64,000 nucleotides of DNA from Candidatus Spyradenecus sp. (GTDB lineage: Bacteria; Verrucomicrobiota; Verrucomicrobiia; Opitutales; UBA953). A model generated the notes under the pieces. The model made no database searches. It was not told the DNA's origin and was given only the letters and a program-made list of their open reading frames with translations. Shown in pieces: positions 1,249-63,811 of the stretch. The first letter of the stretch is position 1, and each line of letters starts with the position of its first letter. The position numbers and the translations under genes were made by a program. The stretch lies in the NCBI GenBank assembly GCA_045535075.1, contig JAZSKX010000007.1, positions 32,001 to 96,000 on the forward strand, in the 5' to 3' direction.

Positions 1249-1791
1249 ATGAAACGCGCAAAAACACAACAAAAAAAAGAGAAAAGCAAAAACGACACAG
1301 CGTCGTTTTTGTTGTCTGCTTGCGAAAAAAGGACTGTGTTGCTAGGCGTCCAGGTTGATCCATCGTTGGTTTCGCTCGTCGAATCTGCTGCTCGCCTTGC
1401 GGGAACGACAAAGTCCAATTTTGTTCGTTTGGCAGTTGTTAAAGCCTTACGCGAAGCCGGTTTTGCTGTTGATGATGCGGATGCGGTGTCTTATCAGGGC
1501 AAGCAGTCTTTGCCTAAGGCAGAGCTCTCTGCGCGTGCTGCGGGCGCGCGGGCGGTGCGCGACTCAAAGACGCCGGGAACGCCGGAAAATGCGCGCAGAA
1601 TGGCGCTTTTGGCGGCGGGATACGCCGAAGATGCGGTCGCGGCTTACCTCTACGCCAAAGCGCGCGCAGAAAAAACGGCCGGGCGCGCCCTCACGCCCGC
1701 CGAAGATGAAGAATTTATCACATCGGCGGCAGCCCGCGCCGCCGAAGTAAGTAACCCATGGGGCGCAGGCCCTCCGAATATCAATATTTAA
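1249..1791 (+). CDS. Putative ribbon-helix-helix (CopG-like) DNA-binding protein; start uncertain
   Basis: LLGVQVDPSLVSLVESAARLAGTTKSNFVRLAVVKAL resembles the RHH beta-alpha-alpha pattern. Confidence 0.55.
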   Translation: MKRAKTQQKKEKSKNDTASFLLSACEKRTVLLGVQVDPSLVSLVESAARLAGTTKSNFVRLAVVKALREAGFAVDDADAVSYQGKQSLPKAELSARAAGARAVRDSKTPGTPENARRMALLAAGYAEDAVAAYLYAKARAEKTAGRALTPAEDEEFITSAAARAAEVSNPWGAGPPNINI

Positions 1792-1792
1792 G

Positions 1793-2095
1793 GTGGCGAC
1801 GAATTGGCTGTTAAGGTGTCCGTGGTGTGCGGCTGTTGTTGTTGAGGGGCTTGGTATTCGCGATTACGGGCGAAAGTGTGTCTGTCGCGAATGCGGGAAA
1901 AAACTGGTAGTGCCAAATCCGTGGCAAGGGCGAGACTATGAGGCGCGAAAAGTCTTAGTCGAGAAGATTAAAGACGCGCTTTTGCCGCGCGGCGAGGCGG
2001 TTTTACAGCGTCGTCGTCGCTTGGTGCGAGCGCTTTTGTATGGCGTTGAAAGCGAGGCGGTGCTGACGCTCGTGGCAGATTCTCGACGCTGTTAA
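1793..2095 (+). CDS. Zinc-ribbon hypothetical protein
   Basis: CPWC...CREC motif, GTG start directly after upstream stop. Confidence 0.5.
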   Translation: MATNWLLRCPWCAAVVVEGLGIRDYGRKCVCRECGKKLVVPNPWQGRDYEARKVLVEKIKDALLPRGEAVLQRRRRLVRALLYGVESEAVLTLVADSRRC

Positions 2096-2123
2096 CACGG
2101 CGGCGGCTTCGCTTAGCGACAAA

Positions 2124-2603
2124 ATGTGCAACCTTGGGCACTCCGTCGATATGGCAAGCCTCGGCATTCAGAGCAAGATTGCTGATTGCTGCTGCTCGAC
2201 GAAACAGGTGATCGCGGAAGGCTTCTGCGGGGTGGACAAGTCCATTCTTCAGCAAACCAACACGATTCAAGCCGGTTTCACTCAGCTTGGATTCCAGCAG
2301 GAGCGTAATTTCGCCGCTGTGCTTCAGGCCATCAAAGACGAGGGCAATGCGACCCGTTCGCAAGCTCAAGAGTTCCAGACGGCGAACCTTCTCGCGCACA
2401 AAGACGAGATTATTCAAAATCAAAAGGAACGCATCGGCGACCTGCTCACGACGGCGCAAACGAGCGTCTTGCTCAACAACAACGCGCAGCAAAGCAACGC
2501 CATCACGACGGCGTTTAACTCGATTAGTGCGTCGCTTGCAGCCATCTTGGCGCGCCTTCCGGCAACAACCGTTACCGGGGCAGCTAGCGCGGCGACTGCC
2601 TAG
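2124..2603 (+). CDS. Phage-associated coiled-coil protein with Cys-triplet motif, probably 5'-truncated
   Basis: IADCCCSTKQVIAEGFCGVDKSILQQTN resembles a hypothetical family common in gut prophages; frame stays open upstream of the ATG to a TGA at 2064. Confidence 0.6.
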   Translation: MCNLGHSVDMASLGIQSKIADCCCSTKQVIAEGFCGVDKSILQQTNTIQAGFTQLGFQQERNFAAVLQAIKDEGNATRSQAQEFQTANLLAHKDEIIQNQKERIGDLLTTAQTSVLLNNNAQQSNAITTAFNSISASLAAILARLPATTVTGAASAATA

Positions 2604-2670
2604 CGATCCTTCCTTGCGGGTTCGGGGTTTTCCGGGCCCGCAAGGGTAAACGTTTAAGCGAAAGGATAGT

Positions 2671-3120
2671 ATGAAAAAAGTTCATGCGCAAAAGCTCATT
2701 GGGCATTTTGATAAAGGAGCGCTTACGGATGTTTGCGAAGTCTTAGGCGACAACTACGACGAAATTCTCGCGTTTAGCACGGGGCGCCGCGTTCAGGTTC
2801 GCGACTCGCGTACCGGATCGTGGCAAAATGCCGGCGATAACCCTGATTTTGATAATGACAACAAAGAGTTTCGCGTTCACCCCGACGATTCTCATGTTGC
2901 GTTTTTCTACGTGGATTCCGACGGTTGCGTTGCTGCGAAAGTCGGCGACGTTGCCCCTGACGATCCTCATAAAAAGGCGGGCAATTATTTTTCGGACTTT
3001 AAGACTGCCCACAAGGCAGCCAAGGAAGTCAAGCGCGCTTGGCGCTGCAAAAAAGGTTTCGACGTCTCGAAGATGCTTGAGGTTTTTGGCCTCCAAAAAG
3101 TCGACGAGGACGACGATTAA
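2671..3120 (+). CDS. Phage hypothetical protein
   Basis: AFSTGRRVQVR...W...PDF...EFRVHP and GNYFSDFKTAHKAA resemble recurrent phage hypothetical-protein motifs; AAGGA upstream. Confidence 0.65.
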   Translation: MKKVHAQKLIGHFDKGALTDVCEVLGDNYDEILAFSTGRRVQVRDSRTGSWQNAGDNPDFDNDNKEFRVHPDDSHVAFFYVDSDGCVAAKVGDVAPDDPHKKAGNYFSDFKTAHKAAKEVKRAWRCKKGFDVSKMLEVFGLQKVDEDDD

Positions 3121-3147
3121 GAAATAATACAATAATTCCTCCTAAAA

Positions 3148-3178
3148 GAGCCTCTCGGGATTTAATCCTGAGAGGCTC
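3148..3178 (+). terminator. Hairpin after last element gene
   Basis: GAGCCTCTCGGGA-TTTAA-TCCTGAGAGGCTC stem-loop. Confidence 0.65.
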
Positions 3179-3181
3179 GTC

Positions 3182-3300: not shown

Positions 3301-3337
3301 TCGGAATGATACAGCAACGGAAAGAATATGAATATAA

Positions 3338-4024: not shown

Positions 4025-4033
4025 GAAAATTTT

Positions 4034-5320: not shown

Positions 5321-5344
5321 GGGAAGAGATTAAGATTAGAGGAA

Positions 5345-5434: not shown

Positions 5435-5453
5435 CCGTTTGCTTGCTTTCTTT

Positions 5454-7816: not shown

Positions 7817-7824
7817 TGAGAAGT

Positions 7825-8373: not shown

Positions 8374-8901
8374 TTAATTAAAAATGGATATGAATCCGTG
8401 GGCAAGCCAAAGGCAGGCGCAGGTCGCGAGCGCGGCCGCAAAATCGTCGGCGACAACGCCGAATCCGCCTTTGAGTTTTTGGAGGTCTTTGATTTTCCAC
8501 GGCTTGAAGATGTCAAAAAGGCGGAAAAGAGCAAATCCGGCTCCGAGCCATGCGAGCGTTCCCGCGTTCCCGCAGTCGATGACGTTCCCGAGTCCGGCAA
8601 AGCAAACCGGCATGACGGCGAATTCATCAAAATTTACTTCGCCCGGGTCGCTTTTTCCGAGGATTTTTTCGCCGGCTTCACAAATCGGAATTGCGCAGAC
8701 GACAAGCAAGGCTGAGAAGATGGAAAACTGCAGAAAGGTGTCCGGTATGTTTAGCCCGGTTTTTTGAAATGCGTAGTAATAAAAAACGACGCCCAGGAGC
8801 GAACCCCAAGTGCCCGGTGCCGGAAGCAGGCGCCCTACGGGACCGAGCGTTGCAAGCGAGGCGAGCAGTTTTTGCCCGGCGGATGATTGGAAGAAACTCA
8901 T
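8374..8901 (-). CDS. pgpA: Phosphatidylglycerophosphatase A
   Basis: APGTWGS, DPGEVNFDE, FRLFDIFKPW, GGFGVVADD. Confidence 0.95.
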   Translation of the reverse strand: MSFFQSSAGQKLLASLATLGPVGRLLPAPGTWGSLLGVVFYYYAFQKTGLNIPDTFLQFSIFSALLVVCAIPICEAGEKILGKSDPGEVNFDEFAVMPVCFAGLGNVIDCGNAGTLAWLGAGFALFRLFDIFKPWKIKDLQKLKGGFGVVADDFAAALATCACLWLAHGFISIFN

Positions 8902-16012: not shown

Positions 16013-16461
16013 GCGAAAAAACGCTAAAACGCTTCGGACTTTGGGCGCTGATTCTCGTTGCTGCGGGAATCGCCTTTTGGACTTCATTTCGCAATGCCGT
16101 TGACATGGCTTCCATCGTGCGAACCGATGCCGACGGAATTTTGCGAGTAAAAGTTTTGAATACTCCCGACGACGCAGACGACTCGCCGTTGTATCTTCAA
16201 ATTACATACACGCATTCGGAACTCCGCGGGAACGACGGAAGGCCCGTCGCACTCCCGTTCCCGCAACCTTTTATTGCCGTTTTGGTCGATGAACAAAATC
16301 GGCTTGTCGCACAACTCGGCGAGCCTGATGCTCAGGGGAACGTTCCCGCGATTGAGAATTTTCCGCGCGGGGAAAAATATTTTTGGATCGGATTTCCGAA
16401 AATCAAAGAAGACGGAAAACCGGTGAGCCTCCTCATCAGAAATCCTTTTTACGGCAAATGA
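16009..16461 (+). CDS. Hypothetical exported protein
   Basis: ATGA-coupled to both neighbours; N-terminal hydrophobic segment. Confidence 0.75.
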   Translation: MSEKTLKRFGLWALILVAAGIAFWTSFRNAVDMASIVRTDADGILRVKVLNTPDDADDSPLYLQITYTHSELRGNDGRPVALPFPQPFIAVLVDEQNRLVAQLGEPDAQGNVPAIENFPRGEKYFWIGFPKIKEDGKPVSLLIRNPFYGK

Positions 16462-19580: not shown

Positions 19581-19626
19581 AAAAAAGCGTTCCCGTGAAA
19601 ACGAATCACGGGAACGCTCTTTTTTA
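19581..19626. terminator. Bidirectional terminator built from an inverted pair of the CGGGAAC motif
   Basis: AAAAAAGCGTTCCCGTGA-loop-TCACGGGAACGCTCTTTTTT between DedA and serS. Confidence 0.85.
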
Positions 19627-19644: not shown

Positions 19645-20916
19645 TTATTTTCCGATAAACTCTTTACCGTAGTATTTGCGGAGCGCTTCGGGAACGCGAA
19701 CGGAGCCGTCGGGCTGAACGTTGTTTTCCAAAATCGCGGCAAGCACGCGCGGCAAGCCGAGCCCGGAGCCATTGAGCGTGTGAACGGTTTCCGCTTTGCC
19801 GCCGTCTTTCGGGCGGAAACGGATTCCTGCGCGGCGCGCCTGAAAGTCCGTGAAGCAGGAGCAACTCGAGACTTCGAGCCAGCGTTTTTGTCCGCCCGCG
19901 AAAACTTCGAGGTCGTATTGCTTGGCATGCGGAAAACCGATGTCGCCGGAGCAAATCAGCAAAACGCGATACGGCAAATTGAGTTTTTGCAAGAGGCGCG
20001 CGGCATCGTCTTTGAGAGATTCGAGTTCGGCGAAAGATTGGTTCGGGTGCGTCCACTTGACGAGTTCGACTTTGTCAAACTGGTGCAAGCGGTTGAGCCC
20101 GCGCACGTTCGCGCCCCAGCTTCCGGCTTCGCGGCGGAAACACGGCGTGTAGGCGCAACGGCGAATCGGCAAGTCGCGCTCGTCGATAATTTCGTCACGG
20201 AAGAAATTTGTAACGGGAACTTCCGCCGTCGGAATCATGTAAAAATCATCTTCCGGCGCGTAATACATTTGCCCTTCCTTGTCGGGAAGCTGCCCGGTCG
20301 CGGTTGCCGAAGCGGGATTGACCATAATCGGAGCCATGACTTCCTCGTAGCCGGCTTCGTGAGCTTCGTCGAGGCAGAACTGAATCAGCGCGCGGAGCAG
20401 GCGCGCCATGTCGCCGACGTAAAACGGGAAACCCGCGCCGGTTACTTTCACGCCGCGCTTGAAATCGATTGCCTTTTCAAACCACGGAAGCTCCCAGTGT
20501 GCGACGGCATTCGGCGAAACGAGTTCCGCGGGATCGCCCCACGTTCCCGCGACGACGTTATCGTTCTCGTTTTTGCCGACGGGAACGCTCGTGTCCGGAA
20601 TATTCGGAACGGTGAGATAAAGTTTGCGCCATTCCTCTTCGATTTCGCCGACCTGTTTTTCGAGCTCCTTCGTTTTGGCGGAAATCGCCTTCATTTCGCC
20701 GACTTTGGCGAGAAATTCCGGTGTGCCTTTTTTCATCGCCGCCATTTCTTTGTTTGCGGCGTTTTGCGCGGAGCGCGCGGCTTCAAATTCGCCGACGAGG
20801 GCGCGGCGCTTTGCATCGCAGGCGAGAATCGCGTCGAAATCGACGTCGAATTTCTTCGTCGCCAAGCGTTCGCGAATCATGTCGATGTTTTCACGGAAAA
20901 ATTTGATATCGAGCAT
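19645..20916 (-). CDS. serS: Serine--tRNA ligase
   Basis: MLDIK, PTAEVPVTN, FRREAGS, RLHQFDKVE, EVSSCS..DFQARR, TLNGSG. Confidence 0.97.
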   Translation of the reverse strand: MLDIKFFRENIDMIRERLATKKFDVDFDAILACDAKRRALVGEFEAARSAQNAANKEMAAMKKGTPEFLAKVGEMKAISAKTKELEKQVGEIEEEWRKLYLTVPNIPDTSVPVGKNENDNVVAGTWGDPAELVSPNAVAHWELPWFEKAIDFKRGVKVTGAGFPFYVGDMARLLRALIQFCLDEAHEAGYEEVMAPIMVNPASATATGQLPDKEGQMYYAPEDDFYMIPTAEVPVTNFFRDEIIDERDLPIRRCAYTPCFRREAGSWGANVRGLNRLHQFDKVELVKWTHPNQSFAELESLKDDAARLLQKLNLPYRVLLICSGDIGFPHAKQYDLEVFAGGQKRWLEVSSCSCFTDFQARRAGIRFRPKDGGKAETVHTLNGSGLGLPRVLAAILENNVQPDGSVRVPEALRKYYGKEFIGK

Positions 20917-31744: not shown

Positions 31745-32064
31745 AGCGGGTGTTTGCAGTATTTCTTTCGGGGTGCTTATTGTCGAGTTGTTTGGACTTT
31801 TCGGTGCGGGAACGCATAAGTATGCCGTTTTATTCGACTTTCAAAACGTCGTCGGGTTTGTTGTCGAGTACGGGCAGTTTGCTTGGAGGAGATTTTTTTG
31901 ACGAGAATGCCGTGCCTAATATCGTCTGCTATGCTTGTTCTCTTCCGTTTTATCTTGTGTCGGACACGATTTTGTTCCCTTACGACGGATATCTTTTTTA
32001 TAACGCGCGATGTGAGGCGGAATATTTTCCCGAAGACGGGGATTTTTCGGATATTCTACAGTAG
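31741..32064 (+). CDS. YceK/YidQ-like lipoprotein
   Basis: MKRVFAVFLSGCLLSSC lipobox; SLPFYLVSDTILFPYD. Confidence 0.7.
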   Translation: MKRVFAVFLSGCLLSSCLDFSVRERISMPFYSTFKTSSGLLSSTGSLLGGDFFDENAVPNIVCYACSLPFYLVSDTILFPYDGYLFYNARCEAEYFPEDGDFSDILQ

Positions 32065-33949: not shown

Positions 33950-33996
33950 AAAAAAAGCGTTCCCGTGGCGAAAGTCGCGGGAACGCTTTTTTTTTT
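33950..33996 (+). terminator. Terminator built from inverted motif pair
   Basis: AAAAAAGCGTTCCCGTGGC-GAAA-GTCGCGGGAACGCTTTTTTTTTT. Confidence 0.88.
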
Positions 33997-37100: not shown

Positions 37101-40100
37101 AGTTGAGTATGCAAACGATAATTGGACCTTTGAGGTTGCCCAAAATTCCCTGAAATTAAAGCTCGATGTCGTTGTCGTCGACATCAGGGAAGCGCAGCAA
37201 AACGCAGTCCTTTCCGATGAGGGCTATATCGCGAATTTTGCCGTGTCGCTCACGGAATACAGCGGGATCGTTTCCGGAAAAGGAGACGTGAATTCCGTCG
37301 GAACATTGGCGTTTTCCGGGAATTTTGCCAATCTTTCCGGCACGGTTTATGTCAACGCCGGAAGTTTCACCATAAAGGAAGCCGCAACGCTTGGGTCCGA
37401 AAATTATGTTGTCGCCGCTGCCGGAACTTTGAGTCTCGAAGGGACTCGTGATTTCGGACAAAGCGTTGCCGGCGCGGGAGCGCTTGTAACCAACGGTAAT
37501 ATTACCCTTAGCGGAGATGCAAGCGCCCACACGGGAACGACGAAAGTTGAATCCGGAACCTTGACGATTGCCCAAGGCGCAAAGCTTGGAACCGGCGCTT
37601 TCAACGTCGCGGGAACGTTGGGATTGGTCGGAGACCGCACGTTCAACAACGCAAGCACCGGAGCGGGAACGCTTGATGTTATTTCCGGAACGACGACGTT
37701 TACGACGAATGTCGGTACCGAAAACTTTGATATTTCCGAAAATGCCGCCGCAAGTTTTGAAGGCACGGCAACCGGTTTTTCCGGGAAACTCACGGGCGCG
37801 GGAACTTTGGCGACCGCGAAGGATTTTGTCTTGTCGGGCGATGCTTCCGGTTTTGAAGGGAAAACTTCCGTCAAGGCGGGAACGTTTACCGTCACCGAAG
37901 CCGCAAGCTTAGGGACCGGAGATTTTGAAGTTGCGGGAACGCTTGCGCTGAAGGGAAATCGCACTTTCGGCAATACGACATCCGGCGCGGGAACACTTAG
38001 TGTTGCTTCGGGAACGACAACGTTCATGAAAAATGTCGGCACTGCAAAACTGGATATTTCCGCAGATGCCGTCGCAAAATTTGATGCCGTTGCCGGATTC
38101 GCGGGAACGCTCACGGGCGCGGGGGCGCTTACGACCGAAAAAGATTTTTCTTTCTCCGGCGACGCTTCCGGATTTAGCGGAAAAACCTCCGTTACGGCGG
38201 GAACGTTCGCCGTCGCCGCCGGCTCGAAATTAGGAAGCGGCGTGTTTGAAGTTGACGGCGTTTTGGCGCTAAGCGGCGACCGAACCTTTGAAAATACGAC
38301 GAGCGGGAAAGGCTTGATTGATCTCGTTTCCGGAACAACCGCTTTTGCAACGGCTGTCGGCGTGGCAAAGTTGGATATTTCCGAAAATGCCGTCGCAAAG
38401 TTTGAAGGCGACGACGCCGGCTTCTCGGGAACACTCACGGGCGCGGGAGCACTGACAACGGCAAAAGATTTTTCGCTCTCCGGCGACGCTTCCGGATTTA
38501 GCGGAAAAACCTCTGTTACGGGGGGGACATTTGCCGTCGCTTCCGGAACCGAATTAGGAACCGGCGATTTTGAACTCGCGGGGAATTTGGATTTGGACGG
38601 GACGCGTCGTTTTTCCAATAAAATTTCCGGCGACGGGGCGCTGGTCGTGCGCGGCGATGTAATATTTGAAGCCGATGCATCGGCGTTTTCCGGGAAAACG
38701 CAAATCGAGCAGGGCGGGAAACTCACGCTCCCGCAATCTTCGGAAATCGGAAGTGAATTTGTCGTTTACGGAGAGTTAAACCTCGAAGGTACGAGGACTT
38801 TTGCCAATACAACGAGCGGAAGCGGAACGATTGCGCTCGCTCCCGCATCGAATCTTGCGTTCGCAAATAATGTCGGAGCAAAAACAATTTCCGTTGCAGA
38901 AGGAGCGACACTTCGAGGCGGAGTTACGATGACTTACGGTGCAGGATCGAGAATCGTGATTGCCGGAGAATTGCAGCTCAATCTTGATAAGGGGGAAACC
39001 GTCGTACTCAATGGCGGGCGCGCGGTCCTTGAAACTTCGTCGTCTTTGAATTTCCTCACGAAAAAACCGGTGGCAATGAAATTGCGAGACGAAACCGGAG
39101 TCGACAAATTGGCGGACGGCGAGACGGTTTCGATTTTCACGGACGGCATCGTCGAAGGCGATGTGCTTGGCTTCCTTGAAAACGACGCAATTCTGTCGGA
39201 CTTTGCCGCGCGTTCCATGGTGGTTTACGATCTTTCACACGGCTTAAATGTTCGTGTCGCTTCCGGAATTGCCGAAAATGCGGATGTCGACACCGCCGGC
39301 TTGAGCGAAAGCTATTTGGCGTGGAGCATGAAAGATGCGCGAAATACTTTCGACTCCATTCAAAGCGGATTTTGGAACATCGACGATCCGGTACTTTCCG
39401 GCGGGAACGATCCGCTCTTGCGGGCGATTTTGGGCGGAGATTCCTCTGCGGCGCGCGCTGTGCTCGACCGCCTTTCCCCGAAAAGCTACGCCGCAATGGT
39501 GGCGATGGCGGCGGAGTCTTTCCACTCGGACGTTCGCAGTGTCGCCTCCCGATTGGAGCAGCGCCGCTACGACAGATTTGCGGAAAATGCCCGTTGGGAA
39601 TTCTTCGCACAAGCGCAATTCAGTTCATTTGAAACCGACACGAAAACGGATTCGGCGATGTTTGACTTCGATACGAACGGCGTGTTCGCGGGAGCTGATT
39701 ACAAAACAAGCGCCGAAACGATTGTCGGTATCGCCTTCGGAGCTGACAACGGCGAGGCGAAAATCCACAACGGCGGCGGCAAAATCGAATCTTCCGATCT
39801 TCGTTTTACGGCTTATTTCGGAAAAACATTCAACGACCGTTTTTATCTGAACGCGGGAACGCAACTCGGCTATGCAAATTACGATGTAAAACGCAAAACC
39901 GACTACGGGAACGCCCGAGGTGATACGCACGGGCTGAGCGGCGGCGTTTTTGCCGAAACCGGCGCACTGCTGACTTTGTCCGAAAAGGAAAATATCTTCG
40001 CAATGCCCTATATCGGTTTGGCATACACGCATTCTCAAATTGACGGATTTGAAGAAGACGGAACCGAAAAAGCGTTCGATGCGGATACCATTAAGGGCGA

Positions 40101-40416
40101 CAGCCTGCGTGCGCGTATCGGGTGCGGCTTCTCGTGGGGATTTGACCTCGCGGGAACGGATTGGCGCCTGGGATTGGATCTCGCATATTCGCACGATTTC
40201 CTCGGCGACGAAGTCGATGTCGAAGTTATGTCGAAGGGCGGAGATTTTATTGCGGAAACGGCAAAAGCGCTTCCGGAAGATGTTTTCTCCGCCGGGCCGA
40301 CGCTGAACGTAAATCTCAATTCGACCATGAGCATTTACGGCGGCTACACGTTTAGCACGGGAACGGACGCTTATACGAATCACAGCACCAATCTCGGTTT
40401 CCGTATGCGTTTCTAA
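34168..40416 (+). CDS. Autotransporter with S8 (kexin-like) domain, P-domain-like region and beta-helical repeats
   Basis: Signal peptide; FSDYG, APG, GTSAAGPLVAG, YGFGLVD; Gly/Thr-rich repeats; C-terminal barrel ending LGFRMRF. Confidence 0.9.
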   Translation: MNSCPIFSKNFLLVAGLLAASAGTLTAVSPTEVFSDPLVSYQWQWHPDQGGINIADVWDSGVTGEGVVIGIAGYWVEPFHEDLNVSTYNPGTNWQTADLSQGLSYDFNRPGTSPKETDDQFYPNENAHETAGAGMAGAVGGNGVGLVGAAPGSTIAGLRGHYRAETFLWASGVAADGTYLGEAEIDVKNFYLGSFYGYSGDLSKDSVGEYLNLAAQNNVVFTCSAYNSRGESNHQYGFPSNCGWLPEANHASVINVAATDKFRRYASFSDYGANVFIAAPGNAVPSTDRTGDLGYTSGYSWAPSGNYYSFGGTSAAGPLVAGVMALGKQVCPDMDARWAKHALAWSSGHNEAPNIDPDEFHYAWESPTGFWQKNNGGYWFNNNYGFGLVDPVKFVDATRDILYTTTGTTFTQTSAGIEKIASTETATGTLRTAEFSVKIGDGALAQNIETVSVHVEFSDAAQVNLDLTTLKVTLIAPDDAKSIVIQGSVGDASTTADAKHFSGYKFLSNAFWGASYGAENWRVLVEYSVDDGVNTTDWVSVDSVEFTQGEVIFEADDVAIAESESVNADMLALESGSFSVAGTMRVEDSVSINAGTFELAESGTLAAYTGGVFGAEKGVKYTQNGGSATIRGDATFKRGATLNGGTLNLYKTLAAGTGMTVNGGTLNVGATGTEISVGAALPVYGGKLVLAENAMFGTALNVEGGFVEINNGATLSKKVAVGKNGEEAIGGSLSAAGTIVAKSGIEFAGKATGTFAKDTAIKEGGLTLSGGSVVWSGMLTVDGGITVSSGALGSTAGNIASYAGNVTNAGTLGIAANASVVFAEGATFINGANKIDLASGSALRLESGISGNNLAGTLSGSGKLTLTQDTDFDANVDAFAGTLAIENGVLSVGAGANLNLATNAVLELGVSDAADWLAVNVASGGNVSFAKGSGLIVNFTGVLGETSEFTVMNWADDASVSGLFNLERGDGIALYVGGVEYANDNWTFEVAQNSLKLKLDVVVVDIREAQQNAVLSDEGYIANFAVSLTEYSGIVSGKGDVNSVGTLAFSGNFANLSGTVYVNAGSFTIKEAATLGSENYVVAAAGTLSLEGTRDFGQSVAGAGALVTNGNITLSGDASAHTGTTKVESGTLTIAQGAKLGTGAFNVAGTLGLVGDRTFNNASTGAGTLDVISGTTTFTTNVGTENFDISENAAASFEGTATGFSGKLTGAGTLATAKDFVLSGDASGFEGKTSVKAGTFTVTEAASLGTGDFEVAGTLALKGNRTFGNTTSGAGTLSVASGTTTFMKNVGTAKLDISADAVAKFDAVAGFAGTLTGAGALTTEKDFSFSGDASGFSGKTSVTAGTFAVAAGSKLGSGVFEVDGVLALSGDRTFENTTSGKGLIDLVSGTTAFATAVGVAKLDISENAVAKFEGDDAGFSGTLTGAGALTTAKDFSLSGDASGFSGKTSVTGGTFAVASGTELGTGDFELAGNLDLDGTRRFSNKISGDGALVVRGDVIFEADASAFSGKTQIEQGGKLTLPQSSEIGSEFVVYGELNLEGTRTFANTTSGSGTIALAPASNLAFANNVGAKTISVAEGATLRGGVTMTYGAGSRIVIAGELQLNLDKGETVVLNGGRAVLETSSSLNFLTKKPVAMKLRDETGVDKLADGETVSIFTDGIVEGDVLGFLENDAILSDFAARSMVVYDLSHGLNVRVASGIAENADVDTAGLSESYLAWSMKDARNTFDSIQSGFWNIDDPVLSGGNDPLLRAILGGDSSAARAVLDRLSPKSYAAMVAMAAESFHSDVRSVASRLEQRRYDRFAENARWEFFAQAQFSSFETDTKTDSAMFDFDTNGVFAGADYKTSAETIVGIAFGADNGEAKIHNGGGKIESSDLRFTAYFGKTFNDRFYLNAGTQLGYANYDVKRKTDYGNARGDTHGLSGGVFAETGALLTLSEKENIFAMPYIGLAYTHSQIDGFEEDGTEKAFDADTIKGDSLRARIGCGFSWGFDLAGTDWRLGLDLAYSHDFLGDEVDVEVMSKGGDFIAETAKALPEDVFSAGPTLNVNLNSTMSIYGGYTFSTGTDAYTNHSTNLGFRMRF
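37513..38800 (+). repeat. About 108-aa tandem repeats in the autotransporter passenger
   Basis: SGDAS motif recurs at 37513, 37837, 38158, 38482 (spacing 324/321/324 bp). Confidence 0.85.
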
Positions 40417-40450: not shown

Positions 40451-40486
40451 AGCGTTCCCGCGGGTGTTTCTGCGGGAACGTTTTTT
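40451..40486 (+). terminator. Terminator built from inverted motif pair
   Basis: CGTTCCCGCGG..CTGCGGGAACG followed by T6. Confidence 0.8.
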
Positions 40487-50889: not shown

Positions 50890-52611
50890 ATGACAATGCT
50901 ACTTTTTCAGGTCTTCGGTGGCTTGGCGATTTTCATCTTCGGGATGAAATTGATGGGCGACGGCCTCCATAACGTTGCCGGAGACAAAATGCGAACGGTC
51001 TTGCGCCTCTTCTCCGCAAACCGCTTTGTCGGAATCCTTTCCGGCGCAACCGTCACGGCGGTTATTCAGTCCTCAAGCGCGAGCACCGTCATGGTTATCG
51101 GCTTCGTCAACGCGGGGCTTCTGACGCTTGTGCAAGCGATAGCAATTATTTTCGGCGCAAATATCGGGACGACGATTACCGCGCAAATTGTCGCCTTCGA
51201 CATCGAGTGGATTATCATGCCGTCGATCATTCTCGGCTTGCTGTTGAGCTTCGTTCCCGCGCGCTCGATTCGCAATTGGAGCGAGACGGTCATCGGGCTC
51301 GGCTTCATCTTCCTCGGCATGACGCTGATGAGCGACGAGCTCAAGGAACTTGCGAAAGATCCCGCGTTCATGCAACTTTTTCAAACCTTTAAATGCGCTC
51401 CCGTCGACGGCGTGATTCCGCCGCTCGCGCTCCTCGGCGCAATCGGCGTCGGCTTGGTCGCGACGTTTATCGTGCAAAGCAGTTCGGCGGTTTCCGGGAT
51501 TGTTATCGCGCTCGGCGTCGGCGGACTCGTCGACCTTTACACGGCGGTGGCGTTGATTCTCGGTTCGAACATCGGGACGACGGTTACGGCGCAGCTCGCG
51601 TCGCTTACGGCAAACCGCGTGGCAAAGCAGGCGGCTCTCGCACACACGCTCTTCAATGTGCTCGGCGTGATCATTATCGCGGGAACGTTCTGGTTCACGA
51701 TTGACGGCGTGCCGATTTTCTTTAAAGCGGTTCAATTCTTCTCGGGAACATCCGGTCTTTCCCCGGAAGAAGCTCAGGGCTCGCTTGCTCGCGAAATTGC
51801 GAATGCACATACGATTTTCAATGTAACGGCAACGGTTATTTTGGTCGGATTCATTCCGCTCTTGGCAAAAATCTGCGAAAAAGTGATTCCGCTCGAAAAG
51901 GAAAAAACAAAGTTCCAACGCCTCGAACCGCACTTGCTTTACACGCCGTCCATCGCGCTGGCGCAAACGGCGGGAGCGCTTCGCAAAATGCTGAAAAAAT
52001 CTTGGAAAATCGTCGATTGCGCGCTTTGTCTTTACAATAAAAACGACGAGAAAAATCAGGCAGTTCTCAAGCAACTCGAAAAGCGCGAAGCGGACGTTGA
52101 CGAACGCCAAAAAGACATCACGGAATATTTGGCGAAGCTTATGCAGGTCCAGCTCACGACGCAGGAAGCCGAGCAAATTCCGTTGCTTTTGCACTGCACG
52201 AACGACGCGGAACGCCTTGGCGATTTGGCGTCCGACATTCGCGACATCATGAACCGCGTTCACGCGAACAAATACAAATTCAGCGAAAAAGCGGAAAAGG
52301 AATTTGACGATTTACACGCGCTTTTGACGAGCCTTGCGGATCTCGCGATTCGTCTTCTGGAAAAGAAATCGACGGACACGCTTCTTGAAGCGAAAGGCAC
52401 GAAGCGCAAGATGAAAGATTTGCTCAATGCGGTTGAAGCTGACCACATGGCGCGCGTGAACGGCGGTTCCTGCTTGCCTGAAGTGAGCATTCTTTATCTG
52501 GAGTTGCTCGAAAATCTTCGCAAGATTTACAAAAACGTTGCGAACATCATCGACCGCGCGGAAATGTTTTACGACAAACTTCCGAAGCAACGTTCCGGCG
52601 CGCCAGCTTAA
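50890..52611 (+). CDS. Na/Pi cotransporter (copy 1) with PhoU-like C-terminus
   Basis: QSSSAST and GANIGTT motifs twice, IANAHTIFN, DAERLGD. Confidence 0.95.
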   Translation: MTMLLFQVFGGLAIFIFGMKLMGDGLHNVAGDKMRTVLRLFSANRFVGILSGATVTAVIQSSSASTVMVIGFVNAGLLTLVQAIAIIFGANIGTTITAQIVAFDIEWIIMPSIILGLLLSFVPARSIRNWSETVIGLGFIFLGMTLMSDELKELAKDPAFMQLFQTFKCAPVDGVIPPLALLGAIGVGLVATFIVQSSSAVSGIVIALGVGGLVDLYTAVALILGSNIGTTVTAQLASLTANRVAKQAALAHTLFNVLGVIIIAGTFWFTIDGVPIFFKAVQFFSGTSGLSPEEAQGSLAREIANAHTIFNVTATVILVGFIPLLAKICEKVIPLEKEKTKFQRLEPHLLYTPSIALAQTAGALRKMLKKSWKIVDCALCLYNKNDEKNQAVLKQLEKREADVDERQKDITEYLAKLMQVQLTTQEAEQIPLLLHCTNDAERLGDLASDIRDIMNRVHANKYKFSEKAEKEFDDLHALLTSLADLAIRLLEKKSTDTLLEAKGTKRKMKDLLNAVEADHMARVNGGSCLPEVSILYLELLENLRKIYKNVANIIDRAEMFYDKLPKQRSGAPA

Positions 52612-52678: not shown

Positions 52679-52720
52679 AAAAAAGCGTTCCCGTGACGAT
52701 CTCGCGGGAACGCTTTTTTT
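52679..52720 (+). terminator. Terminator built from inverted motif pair
   Basis: AAAAAAGCGTTCCCGTGA-CGATC-TCGCGGGAACGCTTTTTTT. Confidence 0.88.
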
Positions 52721-52858: not shown

Positions 52859-54553
52859 ATGACGATGCTGCTTCTAAACGTTTTCGGCGGCTTAGCGATT
52901 TTCATCTTCGGGATGAAATTGATGAGCGACGGGCTTCACAATGTTGCCGGAGACAAAATGCGAACGGTCTTACGCCTCTTCTCCGCAAATCGCTTTGTCG
53001 GAATCCTTTCCGGCGCAACCGTCACGGCGGTGGTTCAATCTTCGAGCGCGAGTACCGTCATGGTTATCGGCTTCGTCAATGCGGGTCTTCTGACGCTTGT
53101 GCAAGCGATAGCGATTATTTTCGGCGCGAACATCGGGACGACGATTACCGCGCAAATTGTCGCTTTCGACATCGAGTGGATTATCATGCCGTCGATCATT
53201 CTCGGCTTGCTGTTAAGCTTCGTTCCCGCGCGCTCGATTCGCAATTGGAGCGAAACGGTCATCGGGCTCGGTTTTATCTTCTTCGGCATGACACTGATGA
53301 GCGGGCAACTCAAAACGCTCTCGACCGATCCCGCGTTCATGCAGCTTTTCCAAACTTTTAACTGCGCTCCCGTCGACGGCGTGATTCCCCCGCTCGCGCT
53401 CCTCGGCGCAATCGGTGTCGGCGTGATTGCGACATTCATCGTGCAAAGCAGTTCGGCGGTTTCCGGGATCGTTATCGCGCTCGGCGTCGGCGGGCTTGTC
53501 GATATTTACACGGCGGTGGCGTTGATTCTCGGTTCAAATATCGGGACGACGGTTACGGCGCAGCTCGCGTCGCTCACGGCAAACCGCGTGGCGAAGCAGG
53601 CGGCGCTCGCGCACACGCTTTTCAATGTGCTCGGCGTGGTCATTATCGCGGGAACGTTCTGGTTCACGATTGACGGCGAACCGATTTTCTTTAAAGCGGT
53701 AACGTGGTTCTCTGACGGGAACGATTTGCCGCGTCAAATCGCAAACGCGCATACGCTTTTCAACGTTACGGCGACCGTCGTCTTGGTCGGATTTATTCCG
53801 CTTCTGGCGAAAATTTGCGAGCGCGTCATTCCGCTCGACAAAGGACAGACCAAATTCCAACGCTTGGAGCAACACCTGCTTTACACGCCGTCCATCGCGC
53901 TGGCGCAAACGGCGGGAGCGCTTCGCAAAATGCTGAAAAAATCCTGGCAGATCGTCGATTGCACGCTTTGCCTTTACAATAAAAACGACGAGAAAAATCA
54001 GGCGGTTCTCAAGCAACTCGAAAAGCGCGAGGCGGATATTGACGAGCGTCAAAAAGATATTACGGATTACCTCGCGAAACTCATGCAGGTTAAACTCACG
54101 ACGCAGGAAGCCGAGCAAATTCCGTTGCTTTTGCACTGCACGAACGACGCGGAACGCCTCGGTGATTTGGCTGCCGACATTCGCGACATCATGAACCGCG
54201 TTCACGCGAACAAATACAAATTCAGCGAAAAAGCGGAAAAGGAATTTGACGATTTACACACGCTTTTGACGAGCCTTGCAGATCTCGCGATTCGTCTTCT
54301 GGAAAAGAAATCGACGGACACGCTTCTTGAAGCGAAAGGCACGAAGCGCAAGATGAAAGATTTGCTCAATGCGGTTGAAGCCGACCACATGGCGCGCGTG
54401 AACGGCGGGTCCTGCTTGCCTGAAGTGAGCATTCTTTATCTGGAGTTGCTCGAAAATCTTCGCAAGATTTACAAAAACGTTGCGAACATCATCGACCGCG
54501 CGGAAATGTTTTACGACAAACTTCCGAAGCAACGCGCGGGCGCGCCCGCTTAA
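52859..54553 (+). CDS. Na/Pi cotransporter (copy 2)
   Basis: Close paralog of 50890..52611. Confidence 0.95.
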   Translation: MTMLLLNVFGGLAIFIFGMKLMSDGLHNVAGDKMRTVLRLFSANRFVGILSGATVTAVVQSSSASTVMVIGFVNAGLLTLVQAIAIIFGANIGTTITAQIVAFDIEWIIMPSIILGLLLSFVPARSIRNWSETVIGLGFIFFGMTLMSGQLKTLSTDPAFMQLFQTFNCAPVDGVIPPLALLGAIGVGVIATFIVQSSSAVSGIVIALGVGGLVDIYTAVALILGSNIGTTVTAQLASLTANRVAKQAALAHTLFNVLGVVIIAGTFWFTIDGEPIFFKAVTWFSDGNDLPRQIANAHTLFNVTATVVLVGFIPLLAKICERVIPLDKGQTKFQRLEQHLLYTPSIALAQTAGALRKMLKKSWQIVDCTLCLYNKNDEKNQAVLKQLEKREADIDERQKDITDYLAKLMQVKLTTQEAEQIPLLLHCTNDAERLGDLAADIRDIMNRVHANKYKFSEKAEKEFDDLHTLLTSLADLAIRLLEKKSTDTLLEAKGTKRKMKDLLNAVEADHMARVNGGSCLPEVSILYLELLENLRKIYKNVANIIDRAEMFYDKLPKQRAGAPA

Positions 54554-54620: not shown

Positions 54621-54661
54621 AAAAAAGCGTTCCCGTGACGATCTCGCGGGAACGCTTTTTT
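54621..54661. terminator. Terminator built from inverted motif pair (duplicate of 52679-52720)
   Basis: AAAAAAGCGTTCCCGTGACGATCTCGCGGGAACGCTTTTTT between convergent genes. Confidence 0.88.
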
Positions 54662-59467: not shown

Positions 59468-62400
59468 ATGTTTGCTTTACCCGTTTCCCTTAAAAAAACA
59501 TTGAAGAAACAGCGCCGCCGCGGATTTTCCCTGGTTGTGTCATTGGTCATGATGGCGTTGATGTTGCTGATCGCAATCTCGCTCGTCTCGTTTGTCGTTC
59601 TCGAATCGGCTCTCGGAGGCTACAAAGTTAAACGCTATCAGGCGCAGGCAAATGCCATCTGCGGCTTACGTATCGCTCTCGCCCAGTTGCAATTACTCTC
59701 CGGCGATGACCAGCGCGTTACCGCGACGGCGGATATTCTTGAACAGGGCGGCGGGAACAACGCCTCGCTCCCGTCCGGAAGACCTTACAAAGGCAAGCGC
59801 CACTGGACCGGCGTTTGGGCAACCGGCGGCTTGGACAAATCCGACCAAACTGTCCTGCGCGATTGGGATTACAAGGAACCGGACAAAAAACCCTTCCTCG
59901 GCTGGCTCGTTTCCGGGTACGACGAAGATAAAGAAAATTATTCTCCGCTCGAACTTCCCGTCGCTAAGGCGTCTGCAAATGCCGAACGCGGGCAGGAGTT
60001 GGTTGGTGAAGCCGTTGCCGCTTATGATGTCGCGGACGACAGTACGGAGCTCGTTACGCTTGTCGGCGCGGGAACGCTCGGGAAAAAAGAAGGTTGGGAA
60101 GAAGATGTCGTCAAAGTTCGTCGCGTACCGATGGAAAAACGGACGGATTTCCAGAAAACTCAAAAAACGTCCGGCTCCTTTGCTTATTGGGTCGGCGACG
60201 AAGGCGTTAAGGCGCGCGTTAATCTTTCCGACAGTTATTCTAATGCGTTTGACGGAACGCTGACGGATTGGCAAAAAACGCTTCGGGCGACGCCGCAGCG
60301 TGTAGGTGCCGAAGCGATTGGTGCTTACAAATCGCTCAGCGATTGGTGGCAGGAAGATGCCAAGAGCGCGGGGAATCCGGGGGCGACGCGTTTGCCTTAC
60401 GTTTTGAGTATCGGAGATTTGGCGGCTTACGGGAACGAAAATTCCGAAGATTTTCTCAAAGACGCGCGAGCGCTTTATCACGATGTTTCGTTTTATTCCC
60501 GCGGCGTATTTTCCGATGTTTACAACGGCGGGCTGAAAACAGACCTTTCCGTTGCTTTTGAAATGCCTTGGGAAGGTGGCGACTCCGGCTGGGATAAAGG
60601 CTTCCGCGACTATCCGCAGTTCCACGGTTCCGGCGAAAAGAACGAAATGAACTTGCTCAGCAAATTCGAAGTTCAAAAGGATTCGACCACGGAATGGTGG
60701 CTGGACCAACCCAAGGAAGGATTGGGCTACGTTTATGAATTTGACACCAAAATCGCAAAGCGCGGGAACTCCGACGGACGTTATTTGCGCGGTCCGACTT
60801 GGGACGTCTTCCGCAACTATTACCGCCTTTACAAACGTGAACTCGAAAACAAGGGCGTACGCGGCTTAAAAGCAAGCGAAGACTCCAATTGGCTCGCCAC
60901 GGGAATGGCGCCTTACAGCTATTTGCAGGGCGATGACAATATTGTTCGCGAATCAACGAGTGTTTTGGTTTCGACCGGAGAAGGGACAACCCAGACGATG
61001 ACCTATGCCGGCACTTTCGGTCCGAAATGGAATTACGGCGCGACTTCGTGGCGCGGCGGGATCGAGCGGCAGGGAAGTACCGGCAATAACGGAACATTTC
61101 AGTTTGTGGATGCTCCGATTTATCTGACGGAGTTTTCCGGCAATGCCTCCCCGCAAGTTAAAACCGGGGCAGTTGAATCAGGCGGCGCATCCGAAATCAT
61201 GAAAGGCTCGGGCATTATTCCGCAGGCGATGCGTCTGGCTCCCGTTATTTTGCGCTTCTCGATTAAATTTTCCATTGTTTTCAATCAAAATTCGGCAGCG
61301 TTGCTCGCAGAGCCGCTTTTCGTTTTACACAATCCGTACAACGTTCCGATTGAATTTTTCGGAATCGGAACGAATTTCACGAAATTCTATCCGTTTACGT
61401 TAAAATTAAGACGCACCGACGGCGGAAATTTCCAATATTGGAATACAATGCGGGATATTTCTCAGAAGCAGAATTCGTGGTCTGAAAGTGAACAAAAGTA
61501 TACGGAGACGCCCATTTCGAGTCCGGAAATGACGCTCCCGCTTTGGCTTTTTTCCGGAAACCATCTCGGAAAATCCGCTCACTCGCTTTATCTTTTCGCG
61601 GGAACGAACTCCTATTCCGGATCTCCGAACGGCTCAATCGTCCTCCAGCCCGGAGAAATCAAGCCGGTCTTCCCGTATTCAAAGCAGTTCCCCGTTACTC
61701 CGGACCCGAACCGTACTTACGGGCTCGCAACCTCTCTCGGGAACTTTGAACCGGACCCGGATGGCGGGATGCCGGGATTCCAACTCCCGATCGCATTTAA
61801 AGCGATGCAGGGGGAAAATGACCTTAATTTCGATTTTACGATCGAGATTAACGATACGACTCCCGATACAACCGTGGGAATGCCGGACTATATCGACCAC
61901 CACGCTCAACTTGAGTCGGATATTATTTCATTCTATCTGTTTTATCCGCGAGGCTCCAACGGCGATTCCCGAAAAGATACAAAATCTTTGACGCGTACTT
62001 GGAATGACCCGGGAACTTCTTCCGGATGGGGCGACCAATCGGATGAAACCTTTCTTCAGAATATCTCCGTCTCCCGTGGCGTCTTGTATCGCCCGAGCGG
62101 AACTTATGACTCGGACTGGTCTCTACTCGGAAAAAGCTTTAACCGAGAAGGAACGAGCGGATTCAACAGCGCTCGGAAACAGGCGATTTGCGTTTACGAA
62201 GTTTACAAAGCGTCGGCGGACGATAGCCCGTTTGCCGGACCGCTACTCTCGAACTCGCGCCCGTGGGTGGTTGACCCGCGCGCTTGGGATTACGAGGCAT
62301 TGGTTGAAAACGTGCGTCCGCAACGCATCCTTAATGAACCGAAAGCAAACGGAAAGTTTTCTCTCAACGGTCCGGGATGGACGGCGCAAATCAAGGAACT

Positions 62401-63811
62401 TGTCGGTATGGATGAAGCCGAAACCATTGAGCACACCGGGAACGGGAACGCTTATTGGGGCGACGGAGAAGGAGCCGGTGACGGACAAACGCACGTTGTT
62501 CTCTATGAAGTGCCGACGCGTCCGATGACTTCGCTCGGACAGTTCCAAAGCGTTGACTGCTCCGTCTTTGATTATGAGCCGAGTTATGTTGTCGGGAATT
62601 CTTACGTTCCCGTGGGCTTTAAGGACCTTGATACGCTTTTCGACTGGCCGGAAGCCAAAAGCAATATGCCGCCGATTCAGCCGCGCGCGGACACTCCGTT
62701 CGCAGCAAACCTCGGATTGTTTGACCGCTACTTCTTCTCGACCGTGAATTTCGGAGACGAAAACGGGCAAGAAAAGAATATCTCCGCATTCACGCAAAAA
62801 CTTTTGGAAGGCGATCCGCTCAAAAACCCGTTGGCGAATCCGCGTGTTTCGTTTATTCGGAATCGGCATGATCTTTCCCGGACGGATAGTGTCGTGCGTG
62901 AAGAACTGAAGGATCCGAATAAAATTGCGCGCAATTTTCTTTACGAAGGAACCTTTAACGTGAATTCGACTTCCGTCGAAGCATGGAAGGCGCAACTCGC
63001 TAGTTTGCATAAGCAATATCTGAATATCGACGGAGAATATTCCGAAGCCGAAGATTTCCCGATTGTCCGCTTCATGAAAATTATCGGAAGCAAAGCAGGC
63101 GGCGAAGGCGACGGGGTTGCGGATTCCGGAGACGATGAAGGCGAAGGCTGGCGTTGGTTCCGCTCGCTGAACGATAGCGATATTCAGGAACTCGCAGAAA
63201 ATATCGTCGAAGAAGTTCGTTTGCGCGGGCCGTTTATGTCGATGGCAGACTTTGTGAATCGCCGCCTCAATTCGAAAAGCGATTACGCCTACGCGGGAAC
63301 GCTTCAGGCGGCGATTGACAAGACTTCCCGAATCAACAAATCGACAGGGCAGGCAAAGAGCAAGCCGGACTCCAAAGAGTTCCCGAATCTTATTCCGAAC
63401 AGCGGAAGCCCCTCGAAGAAAGCCGGAGCCCCGGGTTATCTGACGCAAGGCGACATTCTTTCGAGCCTCGGCGCGGGAATGGCAGTGCGCTCCGATACGT
63501 TTACGATTCGCGCTTACGGCGACATTTTCGGCTTGAGCGGTCTTCCCGAAGCGCGCGCTTACTGCGAAGCGGTTGTTCAGCGCTTGCCGGATTGGGTGGC
63601 GTCCGAAGAAGATGAAGTTCTCGAAAATGCCGACAAAACGCTTTTCGATTCGTTGCAAGTTAAGAAAAATTATCGCAACCAAAATTTGGATAACGACGAA
63701 CACTTCTTCGAAAAATTCGAACGCAATACGACGCTCAAACCAATCAACCGCCTTTTGGGGCGCCGTTACAAAATTATTTCGTTCCGTTGGCTTTCGCCCG
63801 ACGAAATCTGA
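59468..63811 (+). CDS. Large prepilin-type (PilX-like N-terminus) protein of the kind seen in Verrucomicrobia
   Basis: RRRG/FSLVVSLVMMALMLL type IV pilin-like leader; DQRVTATA, AYWVGDEGVKA, FNVNSTSVEAWKA, RGPFMSMADFVNR, RSDTFTIRAYG, SFRWLSPDEI. Confidence 0.8.
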   Translation: MFALPVSLKKTLKKQRRRGFSLVVSLVMMALMLLIAISLVSFVVLESALGGYKVKRYQAQANAICGLRIALAQLQLLSGDDQRVTATADILEQGGGNNASLPSGRPYKGKRHWTGVWATGGLDKSDQTVLRDWDYKEPDKKPFLGWLVSGYDEDKENYSPLELPVAKASANAERGQELVGEAVAAYDVADDSTELVTLVGAGTLGKKEGWEEDVVKVRRVPMEKRTDFQKTQKTSGSFAYWVGDEGVKARVNLSDSYSNAFDGTLTDWQKTLRATPQRVGAEAIGAYKSLSDWWQEDAKSAGNPGATRLPYVLSIGDLAAYGNENSEDFLKDARALYHDVSFYSRGVFSDVYNGGLKTDLSVAFEMPWEGGDSGWDKGFRDYPQFHGSGEKNEMNLLSKFEVQKDSTTEWWLDQPKEGLGYVYEFDTKIAKRGNSDGRYLRGPTWDVFRNYYRLYKRELENKGVRGLKASEDSNWLATGMAPYSYLQGDDNIVRESTSVLVSTGEGTTQTMTYAGTFGPKWNYGATSWRGGIERQGSTGNNGTFQFVDAPIYLTEFSGNASPQVKTGAVESGGASEIMKGSGIIPQAMRLAPVILRFSIKFSIVFNQNSAALLAEPLFVLHNPYNVPIEFFGIGTNFTKFYPFTLKLRRTDGGNFQYWNTMRDISQKQNSWSESEQKYTETPISSPEMTLPLWLFSGNHLGKSAHSLYLFAGTNSYSGSPNGSIVLQPGEIKPVFPYSKQFPVTPDPNRTYGLATSLGNFEPDPDGGMPGFQLPIAFKAMQGENDLNFDFTIEINDTTPDTTVGMPDYIDHHAQLESDIISFYLFYPRGSNGDSRKDTKSLTRTWNDPGTSSGWGDQSDETFLQNISVSRGVLYRPSGTYDSDWSLLGKSFNREGTSGFNSARKQAICVYEVYKASADDSPFAGPLLSNSRPWVVDPRAWDYEALVENVRPQRILNEPKANGKFSLNGPGWTAQIKELVGMDEAETIEHTGNGNAYWGDGEGAGDGQTHVVLYEVPTRPMTSLGQFQSVDCSVFDYEPSYVVGNSYVPVGFKDLDTLFDWPEAKSNMPPIQPRADTPFAANLGLFDRYFFSTVNFGDENGQEKNISAFTQKLLEGDPLKNPLANPRVSFIRNRHDLSRTDSVVREELKDPNKIARNFLYEGTFNVNSTSVEAWKAQLASLHKQYLNIDGEYSEAEDFPIVRFMKIIGSKAGGEGDGVADSGDDEGEGWRWFRSLNDSDIQELAENIVEEVRLRGPFMSMADFVNRRLNSKSDYAYAGTLQAAIDKTSRINKSTGQAKSKPDSKEFPNLIPNSGSPSKKAGAPGYLTQGDILSSLGAGMAVRSDTFTIRAYGDIFGLSGLPEARAYCEAVVQRLPDWVASEEDEVLENADKTLFDSLQVKKNYRNQNLDNDEHFFEKFERNTTLKPINRLLGRRYKIISFRWLSPDEI

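Follow-up and report, generated by a model that had tools for sequence, protein, structure and literature searches.

A dense asymmetric word in Candidatus Spyradenecus as a candidate self-DNA uptake sequence in the Verrucomicrobiota

Why does one short, asymmetric word return every few hundred bases throughout a bacterial genome? This question is raised by a stretch of 64,000 nucleotides from Candidatus Spyradenecus sp. (positions 32,001 to 96,000 of contig JAZSKX010000007.1, assembly GCA_045535075.1; C8:32001-96000 in the contig numbering used here), further referred to as the window. The word has the core CGGGAACG, of which CGTTCCCG is the reverse complement, and an initial annotation proposed it as a new DNA uptake sequence for natural transformation. 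The genome under study (G000) is a 1.95 Mb assembly of 18 contigs with 52% G+C, and it was compared with 18 other genomes of the genus, 14 of high and four of low word density (G001, G002, G013 and G014). The comparison shows that the sites arise and are kept by a force at the DNA level, which is found in one genus only and was switched off in some of its sublineages. As to the nature of this force, the word, generalized as RCGGGAACG, is held with moderate confidence to be a genus-wide self-DNA tag for natural transformation, similar to the DNA uptake sequence (DUS) of Neisseriaceae and the uptake signal sequence (USS) of Pasteurellaceae.

Abundance, anatomy and distribution of the word

Between positions 1399 and 63300, the window contains 137 exact copies of GCGGGAAC or its complement GTTCCCGC, with 82 copies on the plus and 55 on the minus strand. 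In the same span, 166 copies of the core CGGGAACG and 47 copies of the variant ACGGGAAC are present. Dinucleotide-preserving shuffles of the window (n = 100) yield 4.71 copies on average, with a standard deviation of 2.00 and a maximum of 8, and none of the 100 reaches 137. The initial annotation had counted about 135 exact copies and dozens of variants by hand, which agrees with these numbers, and its split of 42 versus 35 orientations over the first 34.6 kb was reproduced exactly. Its statement that the word is usually extended holds for the following G, found after 112 of the 137 copies, but not for the full 10-mer CGCGGGAACG, found in only 56. The excess of plus-strand copies is explained by a single open reading frame (ORF) of 2082 amino acids (aa), a subtilase-autotransporter gene at 34168-40416 on the plus strand that holds 20 copies, all in sense orientation.

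Genome-wide, CGGGAACG is the commonest 8-mer, with 5159 copies, i.e., 2.65 per kb or one about every 370 bases. Together these amount to 41 kb, approximately 2.1% of the DNA of G000. The form GCGGGAAC occurs 4032 times, and the commonest unrelated 8-mer, CGCCGCCG, reaches 1228 copies. The word lies 8.8-fold above the expectation of an order-3 Markov model, an expectation that is itself inflated by the word.

A logo of 6920 GGGAAC instances reads yyR-CGGGAACG-c. In these instances, the first base 5′ of GGGAAC is C in 94% and the second is G in 60% or A in 25%, while the base 3′ of it is G in 77% and the next one C in 45%. Information is close to zero outside positions -4 to +7 around GGGAAC, about 11 positions in total, and the flanks are unconserved. 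Because nothing beyond this compact word carries information, it is neither a mobile element nor a repeat element; dispersed repeats of the repetitive extragenic palindrome or miniature inverted-repeat transposable element type (REP/MITE) were ruled out on the same ground, the logo having no conserved sequence beyond the core. One-mismatch variants of the 10-mer are rarest when the change lies within CGGGA and commoner for the last three core bases. Their numbers range from 0 to 649 each, most of them well above the approximately 4 copies expected of a random 10-mer. The gaps between copies are near-exponentially distributed, with a median of 262 against an expected 258.5.

To assign copies to genes, the longest ORFs were scored by codon usage, resulting in 1490 genes and 88% coding DNA; in later checks, at least three genes proved to have been called on the incorrect strand. 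The word is found at 3.49 copies per kb in intergenic DNA (796 copies) versus 2.53 per kb in coding DNA, where all six frames are used (412, 1469 and 723 copies in the sense frames; 295, 283 and 1178 in the antisense frames). When synonymous codons are shuffled with preservation of the protein (n = 20), 304 ± 17 sense and 179 ± 15 antisense copies are expected, whereas 2608 and 1758 are observed, and none of the 20 shuffles comes close. Codon or amino-acid bias, already set aside in the initial annotation, is no explanation, given the use of all six frames, the intergenic copies and an excess that survives a codon-preserving null. The same annotation described the word as non-palindromic and present in both orientations, which is correct, as CGGGAACG differs from CGTTCCCG and both strands are used. 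It also named strong leading-strand polarity as a sign against uptake, and such polarity is absent. With replication strands assigned from smoothed GC skew only, the G-rich strand carries 2824 copies and the other strand 2316 (54.9%), and for intergenic copies the numbers are 418 and 376 (52.6%). Since 58.9% of the coding bases lie on the leading strand, this small excess is largely explained by gene orientation in combination with the sense preference.

Adjacent copies at a distance of 10-29 bases mostly adopt one inverted arrangement. The form CGTTCCCG-N3-24-CGGGAACG is present as 170 pairs genome-wide, against 30 pairs in the opposite arrangement, an asymmetry for which no explanation is offered here. 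A T-run (at least 5 T in 9 bases) follows 112 of the 170 pairs and an A-run precedes 107. When loops of 0-24 bases are allowed, 147 of 186 pairs are intergenic, nearly all of them downstream of genes, and only 5 of the 150 pairs that are not wholly coding are located between divergent genes. The window has five pairs in the common arrangement, each just past a gene end; their folding energies lie between -24 and -32.5 kcal/mol (z-scores between -4.4 and -9.2). The inverted pairs are predicted to be terminator hairpins with an A-run on one side and a T-run on the other. For DUS and USS, over 90% of the copies in inverted repeats are located in predicted terminators, according to a 2025 preprint (10.1101/2025.10.24.684340).

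Few copies of the word are found in acquired DNA. The prophage C16:185061-221508, about 36 kb in size, recognized by matches to large terminase, portal, head maturation protease and tape measure protein and also carrying the Dam-type methylase matches of G000, has 20 copies versus 96.5 expected, or 0.55 per kb. Only 6 copies versus 37.9 expected are found in the island C8:20790-35120, the word-poor end of which forms positions 1-3120 of the window and has just two core copies (1400 and 1574). A PHROGs search with five ORFs of this island end returned only one weak match, to a family of unknown function. A low-GC methylase island on C12 holds 6 copies versus 17.6 expected. The defence island C2:15779-22230 (locus L246) encodes a full-length MmeI-family type IIG enzyme (995 aa), a DRT4-type reverse transcriptase (937 aa) and a PDC-S57/T5orf172 protein, and its low-GC DRT4/PDC-S57 part has 2 copies versus 9.9 expected. 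Altogether, G000 contains twelve word-free stretches of at least 3.5 kb, several with an odd G+C content. Among 13 IMG/VR contigs with the hairpin pattern, none is rich in the word.

The distribution across the clade was determined with the 9-mer GCGGGAACG, which is enriched in all 18 other genomes of the genus. In 14 of them it is present in 3060-5581 copies, in three in 732-760 and in one in 340, compared with 3244 in G000, while the word read in reverse, as a control, is present 34-87 times. Counts in six genomes that represent four other genera of the family (23-82 copies) equal background. Of 301 genomes sampled evenly across the order (121 genera, 41 families), all those of the genus have at least 760 copies and all others at most 238. 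The enrichment of the word is confined to one genus of the order. NCBI places this genus, Candidatus Spyradenecus, under Lentisphaerota, and its relatives beyond the genus, as identified by seryl-tRNA synthetase (SerRS), are gut and environmental bins that are mostly labelled Opitutales. In k-mer spectra of 73-81 kb samples, the low-density genomes G001, G002 and G013 show the same word, only thinner, and the top k-mers of a 50 kb sample of G014 include no copy of the word and no substitute for it. Fourteen other records, labelled Opitutales, Opitutia, Opitutae, Verrucomicrobiota or Verrucomicrobiaceae and sampled at 6.6-21 kb, yielded only A-run and GC-repeat words.

Two loci from records with other titles (L026 and L027; Bacteroidaceae and Sphaerochaetaceae bacterium, respectively) encode a SerRS that is 96% identical to the one of the window, and their contigs have a word density of 3.0-4.3 per kb. 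These contigs look like genus members that were filed under other family names.

Maintenance of the sites and its loss within the genus

In two high-density relatives that have diverged to the same extent overall, 26 of 33 and 26 of 41 G000 sites are found at the original position (63-79%), compared with fractions of 0.25 and 0.22 for random 8-mers (binomial p = 1e-10 and 2e-8). The low-density genome G013, of which 1.27 Mb was aligned, keeps 676 of 3257 G000 sites (0.208) versus 0.218 of random 8-mers. In the opposite direction, 0.797 of the 848 sites of G013 are kept in G000. In a low-density record matched by region, 7 of 44 sites persist. At 54% of 2901 sites, G013 encodes the same peptide across the word as G000, so that most of the decay in this genome is synonymous. 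Retention above random in high-density genomes, taken together with decay at the neutral rate in G013, shows that the force on the word acts on DNA and can be lost.

By PilT identity (97-98%), G001, G002 and G013 are the closest to G000, yet they are only about 80% identical to it in aligned DNA. We infer that the ancestor of the genus was already of high density, and that the lineage of G001, G002 and G013 and, separately, G014 stopped maintaining the word, in a branching order that rests on PilT and SerRS identities and not on a tree. Genes that disappeared along with maintenance were searched for by comparing the 1490 ORF products of G000 by tblastn with 1.77 Mb (approximately 84%) of G013, the only genome compared on this scale. 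This resulted in 1068 G013 orthologs and in 30 runs of G000 genes that have no G013 ortholog while both flanks lie on one G013 contig. Seven runs were annotated. They consist of an ankyrin/PEGA/outer-membrane cluster, a block of a TPR protein, a small-molecule methyltransferase and ThiM/ThiE, a pseudouridine synthase, PMP/PEP-CTERM proteins, a GDSL lipase and small ORFs. A DNA-related domain is present in none of the genes of these seven runs (out of 30, with about 84% of G013 compared). Maintenance may have been lost by a point change, by a regulatory or ecological loss of transformation, or by the loss of a gene in the uncompared part of G013.

A proposed role in natural transformation and the competing explanations

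Neisseriaceae and Pasteurellaceae are named as the two families with uptake sequences in the same 2025 preprint, where the known words are described as 9-10 nt long, with hundreds to thousands of copies and up to about 2% of the chromosome (10.1101/2025.10.24.684340). The DUS of Neisseriaceae, which is read by the minor pilin ComP, resembles the word described here in being short and asymmetric, in its thousands of copies and its share of about 2% of the genome, and in occurring in both orientations, in several frames within genes and more densely between genes. DUS are present at about 1 per kb, and the word of Candidatus Spyradenecus is roughly two to three times denser. Further similarities with DUS are the inverted terminator pairs, the low numbers in acquired DNA and the limitation to one clade (10.1101/2025.10.24.684340). 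Differences are that the sequences are unrelated, that the present host belongs to another phylum, within the Planctomycetes-Verrucomicrobia-Chlamydiae (PVC) group, that the core here is 8-9 nt compared to 10-12 nt in DUS, and that a ComP relative was not identified, nor were dialects and ComEA found. The USS of Pasteurellaceae resembles the word in that its core measures about 9 nt, that it is in excess throughout its clade, that it forms terminator pairs and that it affects coding sequence (10.1101/2025.06.16.659825), while the AT-rich flanking segments of USS have no counterpart here. The USS receptor is predicted to be the minor pilin ComN/PpdA (10.1101/2025.06.16.659825), and the systems are also alike in that neither receptor is proven by experiment. 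Several hallmarks of an uptake word are present in the sequence: abundance, both orientations, all frames, inverted pairs, depletion in acquired DNA, limitation to one clade and positional conservation. At this level, the word matches every trait of DUS and USS that was examined, with the exception of dialects.

A type IV pilus set and several competence proteins are encoded in G000. Two PilB/GspE-type ATPases, a PilT-family ATPase (437 bits, cut-off 319) and PilC are found in one cluster on C5, a secretin of 984 aa lies inside a conserved seven-gene cluster, and seven prepilin-type ORFs are present, four of them in one operon. DprA and ComM are encoded as well, and a 570-aa ORF that matches the competence domain represents ComEC. 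The competence genes for which the initial annotation advised a search have thus been found (two PilB, PilT, PilC, secretin, seven prepilins, ComEC, DprA and ComM), apart from ComEA and a ComP relative. As for the prepilin operon (C1:258587-262397), it is directly followed by a RuvX/YqgF-type gene, and two of its members weakly resemble the Verru_Chthon cassette proteins C and D.

If the word is indeed an uptake tag, the type IV pilus and the competence machinery would bind or import word-bearing DNA more readily than other DNA. Imported DNA of the same species would then recombine into the chromosome, by which word-bearing alleles would be copied into genomes more often than word-less ones. 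Such a molecular drive, with or without selection for within-species sex, could fill long-resident DNA with the word, which would settle at places where the encoded protein permits it and, as pairs, in the stems of terminators. The word would be read by a surface protein, perhaps by one of the seven that resemble prepilins. It is tentatively suggested that a working uptake-specificity system of this kind, without ComEA or a ComP/ComN relative and hence with a new kind of receptor, exists in the PVC group, and that it would be the first outside the Proteobacteria. No literature was found on this motif, or on uptake sequences in Verrucomicrobia/Verrucomicrobiota, Opitutales, Opitutae or Lentisphaerae, in a search that left most subscription journals outside its coverage. 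If true, this would be a third, unrelated case in another phylum, indicating that the uptake-word solution evolves repeatedly, here with an even denser word and without the usual periplasmic DNA receptor. It would also suggest that natural transformation is frequent in a gut lineage without cultured members. Within the genus, the contrast between species that maintain the word and species in which it decays offers a natural comparison for finding the reader protein.

Several observations weigh against uptake as the function of the word. Firstly, ComEA was not found in G000, in which the sole strong HHH_3 match is a Tex-like protein of 787 aa. The genus as a whole yielded no canonical small ComEA, and 17 of its 18 other genomes likewise have Tex-type ORFs of about 800 aa as their only strong HHH_3 matches. 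Small ComEA-like HHH_3 ORFs (245 and 338 aa) occur in only two of 41 relatives, the other strong matches being Tex-sized (about 760-1200 aa where complete). Secondly, the machinery is not specific for the genus, as PilT matches are found in all 41 relatives, most of which lack the word. Thirdly, the four low-density genomes keep PilT, ComEC, DprA, ComM and prepilins, and G013 keeps the secretin and pilin clusters at 76-91% identity. The loss of the drive is therefore not explained by the loss of any gene that was searched for, and competence genes were rejected as the missing factor, given that low-density genomes have intact PilT, ComEC, DprA and ComM as well as an intact set of prepilins. 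None of the seven G000 prepilins is missing from these genomes. G001, G002, G004, G012, G013, G014 and G018 even have 10-11 prepilin-type N-terminal motifs versus seven in G000, and six of these seven genomes have, among the matches listed, an extra cluster of at least four prepilin genes that is absent from G000; prepilin counts do not track word density. Fourthly, the dialects that the initial annotation proposed to look for did not appear, since the k-mer samples (50-81 kb) of the four low-density species contain no alternative word. Moreover, the spacing of copies is random and not even (coefficient of variation 1.10), and all genomes examined are metagenome bins. Lastly, the cyanobacterial word HIP1 (GCGATCGC) illustrates that a hyper-abundant, conserved 8-mer can last for decades without an agreed function (PMC5861425). 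Altogether, uptake as proposed in the initial annotation is partly supported: every refutation test that was run came out in its favour, and ComEA and dialects were not found.

The example of HIP1 leads to the alternative that survives best, although it is considered rather unlikely. In this case, the word would be a genus-specific signal at the DNA level, held by selection and read by something other than an uptake machinery, such as a protein that organizes the nucleoid or chromosome, a factor in repair or recombination, or a defence system by which the word is recognized as self. HIP1 is comparable to the word in being a hyper-abundant 8-mer with conservation of sites across species beyond neutral, and its reported excess is 15- to 300-fold (PMC5861425); the sites described here are about three times more conserved than random 8-mers. 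The retention of all checked competence genes in low-density relatives and the failure to find ComEA fit such a signal as well. However, HIP1 is palindromic, tied to two conserved methylases and phylum-wide, whereas the present word is asymmetric, restricted to one genus and without a conserved methylase among the families tested. A search with the C5-methylase protein of G000 found relatives in 8 of the 18 other genus members, and MmeI-type enzymes occur in 8 of the 18 as well. G000 has no N6_N4 methylase, and methylases of the Dam type are found in 10 of the 19 genomes (in G000 inside the prophage). The suspicion that the word is a methyltransferase target, raised in the initial annotation, is accordingly not borne out, as none of the tested families (C5, N6_N4, Dam and MmeI) is conserved in the genus, and no orphan methyltransferase among them is either; in addition to these families, there are three type I HsdM genes. 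Furthermore, the spacing is exponential at short range, and the combination of terminator pairing with depletion in foreign DNA is the pattern of DUS and USS. HIP1 itself has now been proposed as a signal for uptake or transformation (PMC13756078; 10.1101/2024.09.10.611283), a proposal that it would share with the word of Candidatus Spyradenecus. If the latter does not govern uptake, it forms a second puzzle of the HIP1 type, with a cleaner on/off phylogeny.

A second alternative holds that the word is a functionless by-product of biased mismatch repair, gene conversion or mutation, which would turn near-matches into the word, and that the responsible enzyme was lost where the word decays. This agrees with a force that acts on DNA, at mostly synonymous sites, and that can be lost, and very short patch (VSP) repair is a known, albeit weak, precedent for a repair-driven excess of a word. 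Nevertheless, a by-product is improbable. Vsr is present in one of the 19 genomes of the genus and not in G000, no candidate enzyme was seen among the annotated genes that are specific for G000 relative to G013, and the one-mismatch variants of the 10-mer are not clearly depleted, as conversion would require. To our knowledge, a 50-fold excess of an asymmetric word of 8-9 bases is also far beyond any repair bias.

Less probable still is a recombination hotspot like Chi, or a polar signal like the FtsK-orienting polar sequences (KOPS) and architecture-imparting sequences (AIMS), read by a motor of the AddAB/RecBCD or FtsK type. These are asymmetric, over-represented octamers, and the word is asymmetric too. 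In addition, 17 of the 19 genomes have matches to the PDDEXK_1 nuclease family, in most of them as ORFs of about 1100 aa that resemble AddAB/RecB. Chi, KOPS and AIMS are strongly co-oriented with replication, whereas the polarity of the word is almost nil (54.9% overall, 52.6% intergenic). Known Chi sites are far less dense than the word (2.65 per kb) and have a far smaller fold excess, and terminator pairing is a trait of neither Chi nor KOPS.

The least probable explanation is a target of restriction-modification or another DNA modification (by an MmeI-type IIG enzyme, Dcm, a type I system or Dnd phosphorothioation at GAAC), for G000 does encode a full MmeI-family enzyme (C2:15779-18766), enzymes of this type read asymmetric sites of 6-8 bp ending in AC or AG, and the word contains GAAC, but the MmeI-type gene is patchy (present in low-density G001, not found in eight high-density genomes), the Dcm (C5) genes are patchy and lie in word-free low-GC islands, DndC exceeds the cut-off in none of the 19 genomes, and restriction sites are normally avoided and not enriched.

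Predicted terminator hairpins and other features of the window

A simple terminator scan over a range of 18 kb, with loops of 3-8 bases only, gave no more sites than shuffled sequence, and the hairpins at 33958-33985 and 40453-40480, although within range, were not listed by it. Because of this restriction on loop size, the hairpins of the inverted pairs were folded directly. The pair at 19588-19616, CGTTCCCG-N13-CGGGAACG with a 5′ A-run and a 3′ T-run (-24.3 kcal/mol, z -6.6), is a predicted two-way terminator between an ORF that ends at 19557 on the plus strand and the SerRS gene at 19645-20916 on the minus strand. The predicted terminator hairpin at 33958-33985 (-32.5 kcal/mol, z -6.1) is located 3′ of a sugar/MFS transporter gene (32153-33931, plus strand), and the one at 40453-40480 (-28.0 kcal/mol, z -4.4) 3′ of the autotransporter gene. 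The rare arrangement, CGGGAACG-N21-CGTTCCCG, is represented in the window by one pair, at 16227-16263. Two direct copies of GCGGGAAC abut each other on the minus strand at 8558-8573. Towards the end of the window, an ORF of 1447 aa (59468-63811) matches no Pfam family at E ≤ 1e-5.

The remaining two predicted terminator hairpins follow two tandem genes on the plus strand, both encoding an Na/Pi cotransporter-PhoU protein. One hairpin (52686-52712; -27.8 kcal/mol, z -7.0) lies 3′ of the first gene (50890-52611) and the other (54628-54654; -32.5 kcal/mol, z -9.2) 3′ of the second (52859-54553). The latter hairpin and the 20 bases upstream of it are identical to those at 52686. The presence of the same hairpin with identical 20-base flanks behind both genes suggests a recent tandem duplication.

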